Origin: Nanobdellota archaeon | GTDB taxonomy: Archaea; Nanobdellota; Nanobdellia; Pacearchaeales; GW2011-AR1 | DNA length: 24,000 nt | Assembly: GCA_038045365.1 (NCBI GenBank) | Contig: JBBSYH010000016.1 | Coordinates: forward strand, 6,883 to 30,882 | Direction: 5' to 3' | In this document: positions 2,393-20,998 of the stretch, piece after piece | Layout of the letters: every line of letters starts with the position of its first letter | Position numbering within the stretch: position 1 is the first letter of the stretch | Notes under the pieces: generated by a model | Databases searched by the model: none | Seen by the model: only the letters and a program-made list of their open reading frames with translations | What the model was told of the DNA's origin: nothing | Translations under genes and position numbers: made by a program

Positions 2393-4829
2393 AGTAATTG
2401 AAAAAAAATGGCAGAAGAAATGGGAAGAGAAGAAAGTATTTTCAGCCAAAGAGGGAAAGAATAATAAATACTATGTTTTGGAGATGTTTCCTTATCCGAG
2501 CGCTGATTATTTGCATATGGGACATGTCAGGAATTATTCAATTGGGGATTTAATTGCAAGATATAAAAGAATGAAGGGATTTAATGTTCTTTATCCTATG
2601 GGATTTGATTCTTTTGGACTTCCTGCGGAAAATGCGGCAATAAAGGAAAAGATACATCCTAAAAAATATACAGAGCATGCAATAAAAACTATAAAAAAGT
2701 TGATGAAGGAGCTTGGGTTGAGCTATGATTGGGAGAGAGAAATAGTTACCTGCTATCCTGAATATTATAAGTGGAATCAGTGGATATTTTTGCAGATGCT
2801 TAAGAAAGGAATTGCTTACAGAAAGAAAGCTCCTGTTAATTGGTGTCCTAGCTGCAATACTGTTCTTGCAAATGAAGAGGTTATTGATGGAAAATGCTGG
2901 AGATGCGAGAGCGAGGCAATTATTGAGCATCTTGAGCAGTGGTTTTTGAAGATAACATCTTATTCAGATGAGCTTCTTCAGGGATTGGAGAAAATTGAAT
3001 GGCCTGAGAGAGTAAAAGAAATGCAGAGAAATTGGATTGGGAAAAGTGAAGGGACAAAGATTATTTTTCAGATTGAAAATTCTGAAAAGAAAATAGAAGT
3101 TTTTACAACCAGAACAGATACTCTATTTGGAGTGACTTTTTTGGTTTATTCTGCCCAGCATTCTGATGTTAAGGAAATTGTTTCAGGAAGCAAGTATGAG
3201 CAGGATTATGAAAAGTTCAGGAAAAAAGTTTCTGCTTCACAGAAGCTTGATTTGAGCAAAGATAAAGAAGGATTTTTTACAGGAAAATATGCTTTACATC
3301 CTTTGACTGGAGAGAAAATTCCAATATATGCTGCGAATTTTGTTGTTGCTGATTACGGGACAGGAGCAGTTATGGGTGTGCCTGCTCATGACCAGAGAGA
3401 TTTTGAGTTTGCTAAGAAGTATGGAATTCAGATAAAGAGGGTAATTAAACCAATGACTAATGTTCCTGGAGATGAAGCATATACTGGAACTGGTAAATTA
3501 ATTAATTCAGACAAGTTTAATGGATTGTTTAGTGAAGATGCAAAAGAGCGAATTACAAAAGAATTGGAAACAAAAGGAAAAGGAAAAAAAATTATCCAAT
3601 ATAAATTAAGAGACTGGCTGATTTCAAGACAGAGATATTGGGGGACGCCTATTCCTATTGTTTATTGTTTGGATTGCGGAATTGTTCCTGTGCCGGAAAA
3701 AGAATTGCCTGTTTTACTGCCTGAAAAAGTCAAGTTTTCAGGGAAAGGAAACCCACTTGAAACAAATAAAGAATTTGTCAGTGTGAAATGTCCGAAATGC
3801 GGTAAACTGGGCAGGCGAGAGACTGACACAATGGCTACTTTTTTTGATTCAAGCTGGTATTTCTTGAGATATTTGGATAATAAGAATGATAAAAAGATGT
3901 TTGATAAAAAAAATGCTGATTATTGGATGCCTGTTGAGCAGTATATAGGGGGAATTGAGCACGCCGTATTACATCTCCTTTATGCAAGATTTTTTACAAA
4001 GTTTTTGAGAGATTTGAAGTTAATAGAAGTTGATGAGCCTTTTATGAGATTGTTCAATCAAGGAATTGTTCATAAAAATGGCAAGAGAATGAGCAAGAGC
4101 AATGGAAATGCAGTAACTGCGGAAGAAGTTTCAAAGAAATATGGAATTGACAGCGCTAGATTGTTCCTGCTTTTTGTTTCTGGGTCTGATAAGGATATGG
4201 AATGGGATGAGCATGGAATAGAAGGAGCTTTTAGAGTGACGAATAAATTAATGAAACTTGCTGAAAAAGCAGGAGGTAAAAGTGATACTTTAATGGAGCA
4301 TAAATTGAATTTCACTTTGAGAGCGTTAGAGAACGGATATGAAAATTTTGAATTTAACAAAGGGCTTGTAAGATTTATGGAATTTGTTAATTATTTGAGC
4401 AATAGAAAGGAAATTCCAAGAGAAGTTTTGATTTCTTTGACATTGGCAATTTCTCCTGTCATGCCTCATGTTGCAGAGGAAATCTGGAGCAAAATTGGCG
4501 GGAAAGGGCTTGTTGCTGAGCAGAAATGGAGAGGATATGATGCTTCCAAGATAAATGAGAAAATAGAGAGTGTTGAGAAAGCAGTTGAAAAGACAATTGA
4601 CGATATTTTAAATGTACTAAAAATAATCAAGGAGAAGAAAGGTGAAGAGAGCGAGAAAATTTATTTATATACGCTTCCAAATGAAAAAGAATATTACGAT
4701 GCAGATGCTTTGAGCAAAAGAGTTGGGAAAGAAGTTATGGTTTTTGCTGTGAATGACAAGAAAAAATATGATCCTGAAGGGAAAGCAGGGAAAGCTAAGC
4801 CTGGAAAGCCAGGGATTTATGCAGATTAA
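2382..4829 (+). CDS. leuS: Leucyl-tRNA synthetase, bacterial-type core with an atypical C-terminal module
   Basis: HMGH ([21 protein letters not shown]), [13 protein letters not shown], the zinc/CP1 block [24 protein letters not shown], the editing block [12 protein letters not shown], and KMSKS ([10 protein letters not shown]). The match to E. coli LeuRS, as I recall it, is collinear. The gene overlaps aIF-1A by 11 nt. Confidence 0.95.
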
Positions 4830-5299: not shown

Positions 5300-5321
5300 G
5301 CCTTATTTATTATTGAAGCAG

Positions 5322-6092
5322 ATGAGTGAACTTATTGCTGCGCTAATATTAGCTGTAGTTCAAGGAATTACTGAATGGCTGCCTATTTCTAGTTCAGGTC
5401 ATTTAGTTATATTTGAGAAACTACTAGGGTATGATGGGGGATTGTTTTTTGAAGTTGCATTGCATTTTGGGACATTAATGGCTGTTTTTGTTTATTTTGG
5501 ACAGGATATCGTTGATATTTTACGTGATTTGCTAAATTTGAATTTTAAGAGTGAGAATGGAAAAATCGGCATTTTTTTAATTATAGCGAGCATTCCGGCA
5601 GGGATTATAGGATTATTTTTTCATAATATTATTTCTGTTTCTGGAAATTGGATAATGCTTGCTTTGGGTTTTTTAATTAGTTCGATTATACTCTTTATTG
5701 GATCAAGCGCCCCAGCAAAAGTGAAAAAACTGGGATTTTTAGGGGCTATTTTTGTAGGATTAATGCAAATTTTTTCTTTATTCAGAGGAGTTTCAAGGAG
5801 CGGCTCAACGATAACTGCTGGATTGTTGGCCGGACTTAATGAAAAACAAGCAATAAAATTTTCTTATCTTTTATCTATACCGATAATATTAGGAGCAAAT
5901 ATAATTTTAGTGGGCAACAATACTCTGCCAAGTGAACTAATATGGGCTGCCTTGGTTTCTTTTTTTGTCAGCTTAGGAGCAATGCATTTTTCATTTAATT
6001 ATATATTAAACAATAGAAAGAATCTGAGGTGGCTTGGAATCTATCTTTTGGTTGTTGCTCTTGCTTTAGGAGTTTATTCTATTGTAAGCTGA
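5322..6092 (+). CDS. uppP: Undecaprenyl-diphosphatase (BacA/UppP family)
   Basis: ALILAVVQGITEWLPISSSGHLVI and SRSGSTITAGLL are the two UppP signature motifs, and the protein is polytopic. I prefer the ATG at 5322 over the track's TTG at 5313 on TATA spacing and family-typical N-terminus length. Confidence 0.9.
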   Translation: MSELIAALILAVVQGITEWLPISSSGHLVIFEKLLGYDGGLFFEVALHFGTLMAVFVYFGQDIVDILRDLLNLNFKSENGKIGIFLIIASIPAGIIGLFFHNIISVSGNWIMLALGFLISSIILFIGSSAPAKVKKLGFLGAIFVGLMQIFSLFRGVSRSGSTITAGLLAGLNEKQAIKFSYLLSIPIILGANIILVGNNTLPSELIWAALVSFFVSLGAMHFSFNYILNNRKNLRWLGIYLLVVALALGVYSIVS

Positions 6093-6181: not shown

Positions 6182-8359
6182 CTAATTTTCCACAACAGCT
6201 TTTATCCTTCTAATTCCTGCAGATACGGATTCTTCTTTAATGATTTTGAAGTTTCCGATTTCTTTTGTGTTGCTGACATGAGGGCCTGTGCAGATTTCCT
6301 TGGAAAACCAACCGGATTTTTCTTTTTTATCTTCTATAGTGTAGACAGAAACAAGTTCAGGATATTTTGCACCGAATTCTGACTGCGCTCCTGAAGAAAG
6401 AGCATCTTGAAGAGGAATTTCTTCTCTAATTACGTTTAATCCAGAGGATATTTTTTCATTTACTAGAGATTCTACTTTTTTTATTTCTTCCGGAGTTAGT
6501 TTGCGTGGGAAATTGAAGTCAAATCTTAATCTTTCTGGAGTGATGTTAGAGCCTTTTTGCTTTATATCTTTGGAAAGAATTTTTCTGAGAACTTCGTTTA
6601 AAATATGGGTTGCAGTGTGTAAACAACGAGAAGTTTCTGATTCATCAGCTAAGCCAGATTTGAAAATTCCAGATGATGCTGTTCTGCTTAGGTCTTGATG
6701 GCGCCGGAATTCAGCATTATATTCTTCTAAATCAACTTTAATGCCTTTTTCGTCTGCAAGCTCTTCTGTTATTTCAATTGGAAAGCCATAGCTTTGAAAT
6801 AAAAGGAAAGCATCTTTGCCTGTAATTATACCCTTGTGTTCTTTTGCAATTTCATTGAATTTTTTGAGGCCTTTTTCTAATGTTAAATTAAAACGAAATT
6901 CTTCCTGAACTAATTCAGATTCTATGAATTTATAATTTCTATGCAATTCTTGGTAATCTGGATAGATAGAGAGAATAGCTTTTGCTATTTTTGATGTAAA
7001 GTTCTTTTTAATACCTAGAATTTTTCCATACCTGATTGCTCTTCTGATTAATCTTCTTAAAACATAACCTTGTCCTATATTAGATGATTTGATAGAGCGT
7101 TCATCTCCGAGAATGAAGACTGCTGCTTTAATATGGTCAGCTATGATGCGCATTGCTCTTGTTTCTTCTTTGTTTTTTTCATATTTTTTATTTGAAAGAG
7201 ATTCTATTTCTTTGATTATTGGTAAAAACAGAGATGTTTGATAATTATCTTGTAAGTTATTAAGAACTGCAAGTGTTCTTTCTACTCCCATGCCAGTGTC
7301 AACGTTTTTTTGCTTTAGCTGGAAAAATCCCAAGAGATTTTTTTCTACGAATTCCTTTATTGATTTTGTGTCTGTGTAATGTTTAGATAGAATATCTAAT
7401 CTTTGTGCAGTTTCAACGTTCTTTTTGTCATGGTCAAAATACATAACTTCTTCAGGTTTGAGGTTGAATTTCTTTAGTAGCTCTTTAAAATATTTTGGAT
7501 TATCTTTATTTATTTCATTTTCTTCTAATGAAAAAGCCTCCCAATTAGAATTCCTTCCTAGACTAGACTTTTTTACTAAATCTAGGCCTTTTTTTCTAAA
7601 CTTGTTTACAACTAATATATTGTGACTATTAAAGCTGTTGATTAAATTTAATAATTCTTGATTAAGATTAAAATCTTTATCATAAAGACAATGCATCCCA
7701 TCAACCAAGATTAATCTTTTATCTTTATTATATTCCATAAAAACATCATTCCAAATTTCTACCCAGTTTTCATCATCTGGATTGAATTTTTTTGGAGCTT
7801 TTGTTTTTCCTATCCAATAAAACATTTCTGTGTCAGGACCGCATGGACCATAAAGACCGGCAGGGCTCCACCAATTATTTTCTTTTGGTAGGAAAGAGAT
7901 ACTTTCTTTTGGAATACTGAGTTTCATCCAGGCTTTTGCTGATACCTCATCTTTGATAGCACTATTATCTCCTGCAAAACAAGAAACAACAAGCTTTTCT
8001 TTTGGTATTTTTAAGATTTTTGTGAGGAATTCAAAGCTCATTTTTATTGCTTCTTCTTTCCAATAATCTCCTAAACTCCAATTACCGAGCATTTCAAAGA
8101 ATGTGTGGTAAAAGGGATCGCCGACATTGTCGATGTCCTGCGTTCTAATGCATTTCTGGACAGAGACAAGGCGCTTTCCTAATGGGTGTTTTTGGCCTAA
8201 AAGGTAAGGGACAAGAGGATGCATGCCTGCGGTTGTAAAAAGGACAGTTGGGTCGTTTTCAGGGATTAGAGAAGAGGAAGGAATGTGCTTGTGATTCTTG
8301 CTTTTAAAGAAATCAATATATGCTTTGATGAGAGCTTGACGAGTTGTAATTTTCATCAT
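6182..8359 (-). CDS. alaS: Alanyl-tRNA synthetase, bacterial-type, with an internal HAD-like insertion, a minimal editing domain and no C-Ala domain
   Basis: DPTVLFTTAGM, HHTFFEMLGNWSLGDYWK, GPCGPDTEMFY, VEIWNDVFMEYN, VDTGMGVERT, ADHIKAA, GYVLRRLIRRA. Editing-site HxxxH (HTATH) and CxxxH (CTGPH) are present. I placed the start at the ATG at 8359 (MMKITT...) because TTTATTAA lies 21 nt upstream; the track's TTG at 8377 is less likely. Confidence 0.93.
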   Translation of the reverse strand: MMKITTRQALIKAYIDFFKSKNHKHIPSSSLIPENDPTVLFTTAGMHPLVPYLLGQKHPLGKRLVSVQKCIRTQDIDNVGDPFYHTFFEMLGNWSLGDYWKEEAIKMSFEFLTKILKIPKEKLVVSCFAGDNSAIKDEVSAKAWMKLSIPKESISFLPKENNWWSPAGLYGPCGPDTEMFYWIGKTKAPKKFNPDDENWVEIWNDVFMEYNKDKRLILVDGMHCLYDKDFNLNQELLNLINSFNSHNILVVNKFRKKGLDLVKKSSLGRNSNWEAFSLEENEINKDNPKYFKELLKKFNLKPEEVMYFDHDKKNVETAQRLDILSKHYTDTKSIKEFVEKNLLGFFQLKQKNVDTGMGVERTLAVLNNLQDNYQTSLFLPIIKEIESLSNKKYEKNKEETRAMRIIADHIKAAVFILGDERSIKSSNIGQGYVLRRLIRRAIRYGKILGIKKNFTSKIAKAILSIYPDYQELHRNYKFIESELVQEEFRFNLTLEKGLKKFNEIAKEHKGIITGKDAFLLFQSYGFPIEITEELADEKGIKVDLEEYNAEFRRHQDLSRTASSGIFKSGLADESETSRCLHTATHILNEVLRKILSKDIKQKGSNITPERLRFDFNFPRKLTPEEIKKVESLVNEKISSGLNVIREEIPLQDALSSGAQSEFGAKYPELVSVYTIEDKKEKSGWFSKEICTGPHVSNTKEIGNFKIIKEESVSAGIRRIKAVVEN

Positions 8360-18920: not shown

Positions 18921-19967
18921 ATGTTGACTAAAAAGCAAATAAATGAATTAAAAGAGCATTTTGAGAAATGCCAAAACCCTGTTTTTTATTATGATAATGA
19001 TGCAGATGGATTGTGCAGTTTTTTATTGTTAAGAAGATTTTTAGGAAAAGGAAAAGGAGTTGCAGTGAAAAATTATCCTGATTTGAATCTTCAATATGCT
19101 AGAAAAGTACATGAATTTAATTCTGATTATGTTTTTATTCTTGATAAACCTGTTGTATCAAGGGAATTTTTAGAAAATGTTCAAGCGGTAAATGTTCCAG
19201 TTGTATGGATTGATCATCATGATACTAAGTTCAAGAATGAGTTTCACAATCTGCACATATATAATCCTACAAGGAACAAAGGAAAGAATAATAGTTCAGA
19301 GCCTGTTACATATCTTATTTATAAAATAACGAAGAGGAAGGAAGATTTATGGATAGCGATGATGGGATGCATTGCAGATCACTATATGCCTGATTTTGCC
19401 AAGGATTTTGCAAAGCATTATCCGGAATATTGGAAAGAAGGAATAAGAAAACCTTTTGATGCTTATTATAAAACTGAAGTAGGAAGAATTGCCCAATCAT
19501 TGGGTTTCGGTTTAAAAGATACTACAAAAAATGTTGTTTTAATGCAAAATTTTTTAATATCCTGCCCAAGCCTTGCAGATGTTTTTATGGAAAGCGAGGG
19601 AAATTTGTTTTTTAGGGAAAAATGTCTTGAAACACGAAAAAAATACAATGCTTTAATTGAAAAAGCAAAAGAGAATATTTCCGGAAATCTCATTTTTTTC
19701 TATTATTCTGGGGAGCTCGGCATAAGTTCAGAAATTTCAAACGAACTTTCATATTACTATCCTAAAAAATACATTTGTGTTGCTTATATAAAAGGGGGAG
19801 TTTCTAATATTTCTTTGAGAGGCAATAATATAAGAAGAATATTTGGCAAAATAATTAAGAAATTTGAGCTTGCTTCTGGAGGAGGACATAGAAATGCAGT
19901 TGGAGCGAGAATAAGAAGCGAGGACTTGATAAAATTTAAAAATGCGCTTGAGAAAGAAGTGAATTGA
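18921..19967 (+). CDS. DHH/DHHA1-family phosphoesterase (RecJ/NrnA-like)
   Basis: DNDADG (motif I), VVWIDHHD (DHH motif) and the C-terminal GGGHRNAVGARI (DHHA1 GGGH). Confidence 0.8.
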   Translation: MLTKKQINELKEHFEKCQNPVFYYDNDADGLCSFLLLRRFLGKGKGVAVKNYPDLNLQYARKVHEFNSDYVFILDKPVVSREFLENVQAVNVPVVWIDHHDTKFKNEFHNLHIYNPTRNKGKNNSSEPVTYLIYKITKRKEDLWIAMMGCIADHYMPDFAKDFAKHYPEYWKEGIRKPFDAYYKTEVGRIAQSLGFGLKDTTKNVVLMQNFLISCPSLADVFMESEGNLFFREKCLETRKKYNALIEKAKENISGNLIFFYYSGELGISSEISNELSYYYPKKYICVAYIKGGVSNISLRGNNIRRIFGKIIKKFELASGGGHRNAVGARIRSEDLIKFKNALEKEVN

Positions 19968-19969
19968 AA

Positions 19970-20998
19970 ATGGAAGAAATACAGATTAGAGTTTATGGCA
20001 GAGTGCATGGAGTGAATTTAAGGGAAATTGTCAGAGCGAGAGCACGTGAGAACGGTTTGAAAGGGTTTGTTTTAAATAGGGCAGATGGAAATGTAGAAAT
20101 AGTAGCCCAGGGTTTGAGAGAAAAGCTGGAAGAATTTCTTACGTGGATACAGGGAAGCCCAGGATTCTCTCTTGTAAAAGGGCTTAATTATTATTGGAAA
20201 AAACCTTCACAAAAGTTTAAGGATTTTGACATTATAAAAGAAGAATCTTTTTTTATAGATCAGGCAAAAAGTTTTATTAATTTATGGAAATATTTTTTCA
20301 AAGAGGATTTGGGAAAAATTCCAGAACATGTGGCTATTATACCTGATGGAAACAGGAGATGGGCAAAAGAAAAAAAAGCAAGTCCGGAATTTGGACATTA
20401 TACTTCTTCAAGCTTTCAGCATGTGAGCGGACTTTTTGATGAGGCAAGAAAGATTGGAATAAAATATCTTACTCTATGGGGATTCTCTACTGAAAACTGG
20501 AAAAGAAATTCTTTTGAAGTAAAAGCAATCTTTTCCATGATTTTAAAAAATATAAAAGATTTTAGAGAAGAAGTGCATGCAAAAAAGATTAGATTCAGGC
20601 ATCTTGGAAGGAAAGACAGGATTCCAAGAAATCTGTTAAAAGAACTGGAGAAGCTTGAAAGAGAGAGCAAAGAATATGAGAATTTTAATGTTCAACTTTG
20701 CCTTGATTATGGGGGGAAAGATGAACTTTTAAGAGCAGTAAATGCAATTTTGAGGAAGGGATTTAAGAAAATAGATGAGGAAGATTTTACGCATTATCTT
20801 GATTCTTATGGAATTCCTGATGTTGATTTAATTATAAGAACTTCAGGAGAGATGAGACTGAGCGGGTTTATGCCTTTTCAGTCAACATATGCAGAACTTT
20901 ATTTTGCAGATGTTCATTTTCCAGATTTTAATGCAAAAGAGCTGAGAAAAGCAATAAAAGAGTTTGGGAGAAGACATAGAAGATTTGGCGGGAGCTAA
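19970..20998 (+). CDS. uppS: Fusion protein: N-terminal acylphosphatase domain plus C-terminal cis-prenyltransferase (undecaprenyl/di-trans,poly-cis-polyprenyl diphosphate synthase)
   Basis: AcyP: IRVYGRVHGVNLREIVRARARENGLKGFVLNRADGNVEIVAQG (V.G.VQGV.FR ... G.V.N..DG.VE pattern). UppS: HVAIIPDGNRRWA, LTLWGFSTENWKR, LDYGGKDEL, DLIIRTSGEMRLSGFMPFQSTYAELYF, RRFGG. I prefer the ATG at 19970 over the track's TTG at 19964. Confidence 0.88.
   Translation: MEEIQIRVYGRVHGVNLREIVRARARENGLKGFVLNRADGNVEIVAQGLREKLEEFLTWIQGSPGFSLVKGLNYYWKKPSQKFKDFDIIKEESFFIDQAKSFINLWKYFFKEDLGKIPEHVAIIPDGNRRWAKEKKASPEFGHYTSSSFQHVSGLFDEARKIGIKYLTLWGFSTENWKRNSFEVKAIFSMILKNIKDFREEVHAKKIRFRHLGRKDRIPRNLLKELEKLERESKEYENFNVQLCLDYGGKDELLRAVNAILRKGFKKIDEEDFTHYLDSYGIPDVDLIIRTSGEMRLSGFMPFQSTYAELYFADVHFPDFNAKELRKAIKEFGRRHRRFGGS

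Follow-up and report, generated by a model that had tools for sequence, protein, structure and literature searches.

We describe a gene, found in a 24,000-nucleotide stretch of archaeal DNA (positions 6,883 to 30,882 of contig JBBSYH010000016.1, assembly GCA_038045365.1, forward strand; hereafter the window), whose product is a single polypeptide in which a canonical acylphosphatase fold is followed by a conserved amphipathic helix and then by a complete long-chain cis-prenyltransferase of the homodimer type. Our comparative analyses show that the acylphosphatase (AcyP) domain and the helix form a module that is fused to the cis-prenyltransferase (cis-PT), encoded by a separate gene just upstream of it, or missing, and that this module is selectively maintained and tied to the cis-PT, whether fused or adjacent. 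We propose, with a probability of roughly 0.4, that the module acts as a membrane-proximal phosphohydrolase, which would turn newly made polyprenyl diphosphate into polyprenyl phosphate at the cytoplasmic face of the membrane. The host is a DPANN archaeon with a 583-kb genome in 40 contigs; since this genome is 85.7% complete, genes that were searched for in vain are reported as not found rather than as absent.

Architecture of the fused protein

The gene (19970..20998, forward strand) is a single open reading frame encoding 342 amino acids, and runs from an ATG at 19970 (with an alternative TTG at 19964) to a TAA stop at 20996-20998 with no internal stop codon. The only Pfam families detected in its product are PF00708 and PF01255. 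A preliminary description of the window, made from the sequence alone, had read the gene as a complete acylphosphatase domain followed by a full UppS, and the reading frame, the Pfam matches and the TIGR00055 match all bear this out.

The acylphosphatase domain comprises residues 1-89 (19970..20236, forward strand). Its match to PF00708 spans residues 5-88 and profile positions 2-85 of 85, with 73.4 bits against a cut-off of 22.5 (E 1.9e-20), settling the question of whether the N-terminal domain would be recognized by acylphosphatase profiles; the NCBIfam acylphosphatase equivalogs score 49-57 bits, under their cut-offs of 91-119. The phosphate-binding loop, VYGRVHGVNLR, follows the signature V-x-G-x-V-Q-G-V-x-F-R, and GFVLN follows G-[FYW]-V-x-N. 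The catalytic residues lie where the preliminary description had placed them, the arginine in GRVHGVNLR (Arg18, nucleotides 20021-20023) and the asparagine in FVLNRADG (Asn36, nucleotides 20075-20077), and the two substitutions it had pointed out in the loop, VQGV.FR to VHGV.LR, correspond to H13 in place of Gln and L17 in place of Phe. Across 122 aligned fused proteins, the histidine is a rare variant (2/122, with Gln in 119/122), and position 17 is Phe in 99 and Leu in 21 sequences. G10, R11, V12 and Q13 are almost invariant, and G14, R18, G32, N36 and G40 are invariant in all 122. Between species, the AcyP domain is 35-54% identical, compared with 52-73% for the cis-PT domain, and the invariance of R18, N36 and the loop glycines in the face of such divergence argues for selection on the AcyP domain.

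The AcyP domain aligns end to end with the solved acylphosphatases of Sulfolobus (2bjd, E 6.6e-13) and Pyrococcus (1w2i, E about 1e-12). In the Sulfolobus enzyme, R18 and N36 correspond to chain positions 30 and 48, which we take to be its catalytic Arg and Asn. An AlphaFold2 (AF2) model has the ferredoxin-like beta-alpha-beta-beta-alpha-beta(-beta) fold with a mean pLDDT (predicted local distance difference test) of 89; strands at residues 2-11, 31-36, 42-48, 68-77 and 86-89 and helices at residues 15-27 and 50-61 have block values of 82-98. By profile the domain scores as a normal acylphosphatase, nearest to archaeal stand-alone enzymes, and it looks CATALYTICALLY competent.

The genome encodes a separate, stand-alone acylphosphatase of 91 residues (contig 18, L002:1489-1764, reverse strand), which is 29% identical to the fused domain. 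Its phosphate loop, ITGSLQSIFFR, is deviant, with QSI for QGV and Ser for a conserved Gly, and it has no C-terminal extension or helix motif. Two weak PF00708 matches elsewhere in the genome stem from the AcyP-like N-terminal domains of two paralogous UPF0176/TrhO-like rhodanese proteins (L003:108-1001, forward strand; L004:539-1423, reverse strand).

The cis-PT domain occupies residues 117-342 (20318..20995, forward strand). It matches PF01255 over residues 124-340 and the entire profile (positions 1-219 of 219; 226 bits, E 4.9e-67), and TIGR00055 (uppS) with 208.4 bits against an equivalog cut-off of 109.55. All signature blocks that had been ascribed to it occur here and show no variation across the family alignment, namely DGNRRW (with Asp126 at nucleotides 20345-20347), FSTENWxR, RTSGExRxS and the RxG found at the C-terminus of homodimeric enzymes. 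The invariant positions are, among others, D126-W131, W170, F172, S173, N176, W177, R179, R290, R296 and S298, as well as the C-terminal R-R-F-G (R337, G340). The catalytic motifs and the RxG are common to this domain and to UppS, decaprenyl- and dodecaprenyl-diphosphate synthases. In Foldseek comparisons, the model superimposes on the solved bacterial structures, among them 7cpn, 2vg2, 4h8e, 4q9o and 7jlm, with target-normalised template-modelling (TM) scores of 0.89-0.91 and a root-mean-square deviation of about 1.9 A, and the sequence is 35-38% identical to the homodimeric long-chain enzymes of T. fusca (7cpn), M. tuberculosis (Rv2361c, 2vg2) and S. aureus (4h8e), which have this fold. None of these best matches covers the N-terminal 116 residues (query-normalised TM score about 0.62). 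Characterised cis-PTs are single-domain proteins, whereas the core of the present protein comes after an AcyP domain and a conserved helix. No second cis-PT was found in the genome.

A conserved helix that belongs to the acylphosphatase module

The roughly 25 residues between the two domains had been taken for a linker. They are not a spacer: column counts and split genes reveal that residues 93-110 form an amphipathic motif, strongly conserved and belonging to the AcyP module (20246..20299, forward strand; SFFIDQAKSFINLWKYFF), with the family consensus SFIVDKAKSFVNLGKSLL and the pattern [SN][FY]hhD[KQ]AKShhNLGKxhh. Among the 122 sequences, D97 is conserved in 119, N104 in 106, L105 in 118 and G106 in 103 (Trp in the present protein), and position 107 is Lys in 100 and Arg in 20, a degree of conservation about on par with that of the AcyP core. 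Treated as a helix, the motif has a hydrophobic moment of 0.35-0.58, and 2-3% of shuffled sequences attain the observed value. In the AF2 monomer its pLDDT is below 50, and it is not docked in the model.

Where the AcyP domain is encoded separately, the helix stays with it. All five split AcyP genes described below terminate just past the motif, as do many AcyP proteins of 107-119 residues among the best matches in a library of 1.84 billion proteins, and cis-PTs lacking the AcyP domain start about 10 residues ahead of DGNRRW and have no helix motif. A degenerate DNA pattern for the motif gave 23 motif-like matches in 400 genomes of the family, all of them within AcyP–cis-PT genes; the pattern captured 23 of about 63 fusions and hence serves as a one-way check, and about 15 further matches were chance-like, some with in-frame stops. 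The helix motif is thus part of the AcyP module and travels with it.

Distribution of fused, split and AcyP-less forms

The identical protein is recorded on four contigs, the longest of 71 kb, and its closest homologues carry the labels Pacearchaeota or Nanoarchaeota. Each of its top 120 relatives in the database (332-377 residues, 51-67% identical over 96-100% of the length) contains both Pfam domains. The preliminary description had not recognised the architecture as a described one, and we agree: public records name the fused proteins merely polyprenyl or undecaprenyl diphosphate synthases, and a search of a literature library yielded no paper describing an AcyP–cis-PT fusion, the papers that pair acylphosphatase with undecaprenyl or prenyltransferase being unrelated. 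A survey of 401 genomes from the same DPANN family, with one representative per species, recovered 54 complete fusions from many genera and nine more that span the junction and are cut by contig ends. Within the genus, seven of the eight other genomes carry the fusion. In a phylum-wide sample, also of 401 genomes, the full-length fused form occurs solely in this family, other families having stand-alone cis-PTs of 32-52% identity. In the ESM Atlas, a feature search returned generic AcyP clusters only and a structure search returned one 63-member cluster containing both domains.

Classification of 61 loci by tblastn and reading frame gave 32 fused, five split, 13 in which a DHH phosphoesterase gene is followed directly by a cis-PT with no AcyP, and 11 with the cis-PT alone in the sequence fetched. 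In the split loci, a separate gene for an AcyP protein of 112-150 residues lies upstream of the cis-PT gene. In L008, where the AcyP protein has 112 residues, one in-frame TAA parts the two; in L055 they are in different frames, and in L057, L062 and L070 they lie 200-1000 bp apart. In one relative, from genome G250, the AcyP and cis-PT parts are divided by a single in-frame TAA. In L062 (genome G747), an open reading frame for a LAGLIDADG_3 homing endonuclease (2887-3847, reverse strand; Pfam E 1.3e-17) sits between the AcyP–helix gene and the cis-PT gene. A 598-residue open frame in genome G598, considered as a possible DHH–cis-PT fusion, was rejected as two genes in separate frames. The preliminary description had held that separate genes in related genomes would speak against the fusion. 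Such split forms do exist, in the five loci just mentioned, but they give no reason to regard the fusion as an error: fused genes are the most frequent state and are present in seven of the eight other congeneric genomes.

In a maximum-likelihood tree of the cis-PT domain, fused, split and AcyP-less states are mixed within one clade. At least three changes of the fused state are forced by well-supported branches, and the best tree has eight. (One outgroup sequence, L017, belongs to genome G244, flagged as unpublished, and nothing claimed here depends on it.) Divergent fused proteins are also found under the labels Woesearchaeota (NQV91977.1) and Candidatus Dojkabacteria (MCA9383696.1, MBD3363438.1). 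On the 29-kb Dojkabacteria contig WJKM01000021.1, the fusion is flanked by genes for bL27, a bacterial peptidyl-tRNA hydrolase (Pth), FtsW/RodA and an N-acetylmuramoyl-L-alanine amidase, neighbours that identify the contig as truly bacterial, from a member of the candidate phyla radiation (CPR). Since the Dojkabacteria and Woesearchaeota-labelled fusions fall inside the DPANN clade of the cis-PT tree, the fused gene appears to have moved between domains of life.

A second fusion partner

The AcyP module is not confined to cis-PTs. In protein P0203 (MFH1802333.1, labelled "archaeon", from a 97-kb contig), a DUF218 domain is followed by an AcyP domain and the C-terminal motif ...NFLKDQGKSMKNLGKKIL. 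The DUF218 relatives of this protein (ElyC/SanA/YdcF, "Upr-like") are stand-alone proteins of about 190 residues, and a search of the genome under study for a DUF218 gene found none. DUF218/Upr-like proteins are reported to hydrolyse glycans linked to undecaprenyl diphosphate (C55-PP), generating C55-PP (preprint of October 2026, 10.64898/2026.10.14.759067), and consequently both partners of the module would release a polyprenyl diphosphate. The family is another that yields C55-PP and has one archaeal member bearing the same AcyP domain and motif. Compared with the periplasmic Upr-like members, P0203 is a single instance lacking a signal peptide or membrane anchor; being one protein of the cytoplasmic, YdcF-like kind, it offers a lead rather than proof.

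Carrier-lipid genes in the genome

A gene for a BacA/UppP-type polyprenyl-diphosphate phosphatase lies 14 kb upstream of the fusion gene (5313..6092, forward strand; PF02673, E 5e-59), in agreement with the preliminary description, which had placed one elsewhere in the window. It scores 164 bits against TIGR00753, under the equivalog cut-off of 217.5. This bacterial-type BacA occurs in about half of the 401 family genomes, some of which, such as G031 (98% complete), yielded no cis-PT, and in none of four archaeal control genomes. On contig 20 (20443-23687; L019, L073), a Glycos_transf_4 gene of the AglH/MraY type adjoins a gene for a 912-residue AglB/STT3 protein, which suggests a compact N-glycosylation cluster. 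PAP2 (PF01569) was not found in the genome. The Glycos_transf_4, AglB/STT3 and BacA proteins fit a diphosphate-linked carrier cycle, in which polyprenyl phosphate is used inside, polyprenyl diphosphate is released outside, and BacA recycles it.

Neither a trans-prenyl synthase (PF00348) nor HMG-CoA reductase was found in the genome, leaving no evident endogenous source of the allylic primer and isopentenyl diphosphate (IPP) for the cis-PT. Family I pyrophosphatase (PF00719) and H+-PPase (PF03030) were likewise not found; PF00719 is present in only 7 of the 59 family genomes with a completeness of 90% or more.

A proposed role at the cytoplasmic face

What would a phosphohydrolase do on a prenyl chain synthase? 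The preliminary description had considered that it might act on the product, act on the by-product or be regulatory, and the evidence leans towards the product. Any cell that assembles its glycans on polyprenyl carriers has to dephosphorylate the newly made diphosphate. It is acknowledged that no enzyme is known for this step on the cytoplasmic side, where C55-PP arises de novo, because the BacA and PAP2 phosphatases are integral membrane proteins with outward-facing active sites (PMC4641660). The AcyP module, in contrast, would be soluble or peripheral, and its fusion to UppS places it in the cytoplasm.

We propose the following model. The cis-PT domain would build polyprenyl diphosphate at the cytoplasmic face of the membrane, while the helix would hold AcyP close against the surface of the membrane or of the enzyme. 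There the AcyP domain could hydrolyse the terminal phosphoanhydride of the new polyprenyl diphosphate, a bond chemically akin to its acyl-phosphate substrates, and the resulting polyprenyl phosphate would be the form needed inside by the Glycos_transf_4 (AglH/MraY-like) transferase. AglB would transfer the glycan outside, and BacA would recycle the polyprenyl diphosphate released there. According to this model, the module would be a polyprenyl-diphosphate phosphatase of the cytoplasmic face and of the de novo pathway. The proposed reaction is that of BacA/UppP and PAP2, and the analogy would be one of function: the module matches neither PF02673 nor PF01569 and has no sequence or fold relationship to either. 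It is possible, albeit doubtful, that the AcyP–helix module is more generally the long-sought cytoplasmic phosphatase for de novo polyprenyl or undecaprenyl diphosphate, tethered to or encoded beside UppS, in DPANN archaea and CPR bacteria.

Several observations weigh against the model. We know of no acylphosphatase that hydrolyses prenyl diphosphates, and the genome already has a BacA. By-eye counts put BacA in about 42 of 54 fusion genomes and about 28 of 35 with an unfused close cis-PT, and frequencies this similar, which do not discriminate between fused and unfused forms, give no sign that the AcyP module substitutes for BacA. Nor is the module indispensable, as seen in the 13 DHH–cis-PT loci without it and in the gains or losses on the tree, of which there are at least three. 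In the AF2 monomer, proposed earlier as a way to look for an interdomain interface, the domains make no contact that is predicted with confidence (pLDDT of the linker under 50; predicted TM score, pTM, 0.73). P0203 remained a singleton in a search for further DUF218–AcyP fusions, and it looks cytoplasmic and YdcF-like, whereas the members whose chemistry was studied are periplasmic (10.64898/2026.10.14.759067). Lastly, a cytoplasmic diphosphatase tethered to UppS might also destroy farnesyl diphosphate (FPP) or IPP, a concern voiced in PMC4641660.

Alternative explanations

The AcyP fold and helix might instead be a non-catalytic part of the cis-PT, serving for docking, membrane targeting or phosphate sensing, and the split forms would then be its two-subunit equivalent. 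Heteromeric cis-PTs, with their accessory subunits, offer a loose parallel, and such a role would be in keeping with a helix motif conserved as well as the AcyP core or better, with the interconversion of fused and split states, and with the AcyP-like folds that have non-hydrolase roles in this genome, the N-terminal domains of the two UPF0176/TrhO-like proteins. However, the Arg, Asn and three loop glycines that are invariant in all 122 fused proteins are hard to explain without phosphate chemistry or binding, and a homodimeric-type cis-PT equipped with its own C-terminal RxG needs no partner subunit. We therefore consider a purely accessory role unlikely.

A different substrate is also conceivable. 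Inorganic pyrophosphate (PPi) is the stoichiometrically dominant by-product of a cis-PT, and by hydrolysing the PPi of about eight condensations the AcyP domain could relieve product inhibition and pull elongation forward in a cell that has no canonical pyrophosphatase. That neither PF00719 nor PF03030 was found here, and that PF00719 is so infrequent among the high-quality family genomes, speaks for this possibility. On the other hand, the DUF218 partner of the same module makes no PPi, genome G241 carries a pyrophosphatase as well as the fusion, and a soluble substrate would not require an amphipathic helix of the membrane type. Moreover, PPi is not, to our knowledge, a substrate of acylphosphatases, and we regard its removal as a distinctly unlikely function.

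At least as improbable, in our estimate, is that an unrelated housekeeping acylphosphatase became fused to an adjacent cis-PT through loss of a stop codon, leaving two uncoupled activities. The evolutionary lability of the fused, split and lost states and the profile scores of an ordinary acylphosphatase, nearest to archaeal stand-alone enzymes, would be expected under this scenario. It accounts poorly for the retention of a separate, only 29% identical stand-alone AcyP in the genome, for a C-terminal motif that is proper to the fused module and missing from the stand-alone protein, and for the persistence of the fusion across many genera and in a bacterium. The remaining concern, raised in the preliminary description, that a chimeric assembly or a missed stop codon joined two genes is effectively refuted: although the G250 relative has one in-frame TAA between the parts, the same protein recurs on four contigs, over 120 independent homologues are fused at 96-100% coverage, and 54 family genomes hold complete fusions.

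Neighbouring genes

The fusion gene starts 2 nucleotides past the stop of a DHH phosphoesterase gene, as had been noted (18921..19967, forward strand). This context gene encodes a divergent RecJ-like protein of 348 residues with the Pfam DHH and DHHA1 domains; its RecJ NCBIfam matches are weak and under cut-off, and no relative was found in the PDB. In most loci of the family (L007-L010, L022-L070), a DHH gene lies directly upstream of the cis-PT gene, be the latter fused, split or AcyP-less, and the two often overlap stop to start. Neither the Dojkabacteria locus nor the other families showed this adjacency. Being RecJ-like, missing from the bacterial locus and adjacent to the cis-PT independently of the AcyP module, the DHH protein was downgraded as a candidate functional partner. 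Other genes of the window are archaeal housekeeping genes (TBP, TFE-alpha, aIF1A, tRNA-splicing endonuclease, DNA ligase, deoxyhypusine synthase and GatB/E).

Relation to known systems and significance

Stand-alone acylphosphatases such as those of Sulfolobus solfataricus (2bjd/1y9o) and Pyrococcus horikoshii (1w2i/1v3z) have the fold of the fused domain, with the P-loop, Arg and Asn in register. The fused domain differs from them in its extra C-terminal amphipathic motif, its linkage or adjacency to a cis-PT, and the Gln-to-His and Phe-to-Leu changes in the loop. The AcyP-like N-terminal domain of HypF gives weak sequence matches (4g9i, E 1e-5; 3vth). HypF is a precedent for an AcyP fold that stands ahead of other catalytic domains and processes a phosphoanhydride, carbamoyl phosphate. 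The protein described here is not of the HypF type, as it has no zinc-finger, YrdC or Kae1-like domains, and its partner and pathway are unrelated.

An intact phosphohydrolase on a synthase, present in genome-reduced organisms of two domains of life, together with a second partner that yields C55-PP, makes for a concrete, testable candidate. A test of it would bear on the long-unclear physiological role of acylphosphatases and, if the proposed reaction is correct, provide their first firm physiological substrate class. Should the module scavenge PPi or serve as a docking subunit instead, it would still represent a new accessory arrangement for cis-prenyltransferases. The result would also bear on how DPANN and CPR cells sustain a carrier-lipid cycle without an isoprenoid pathway of their own.

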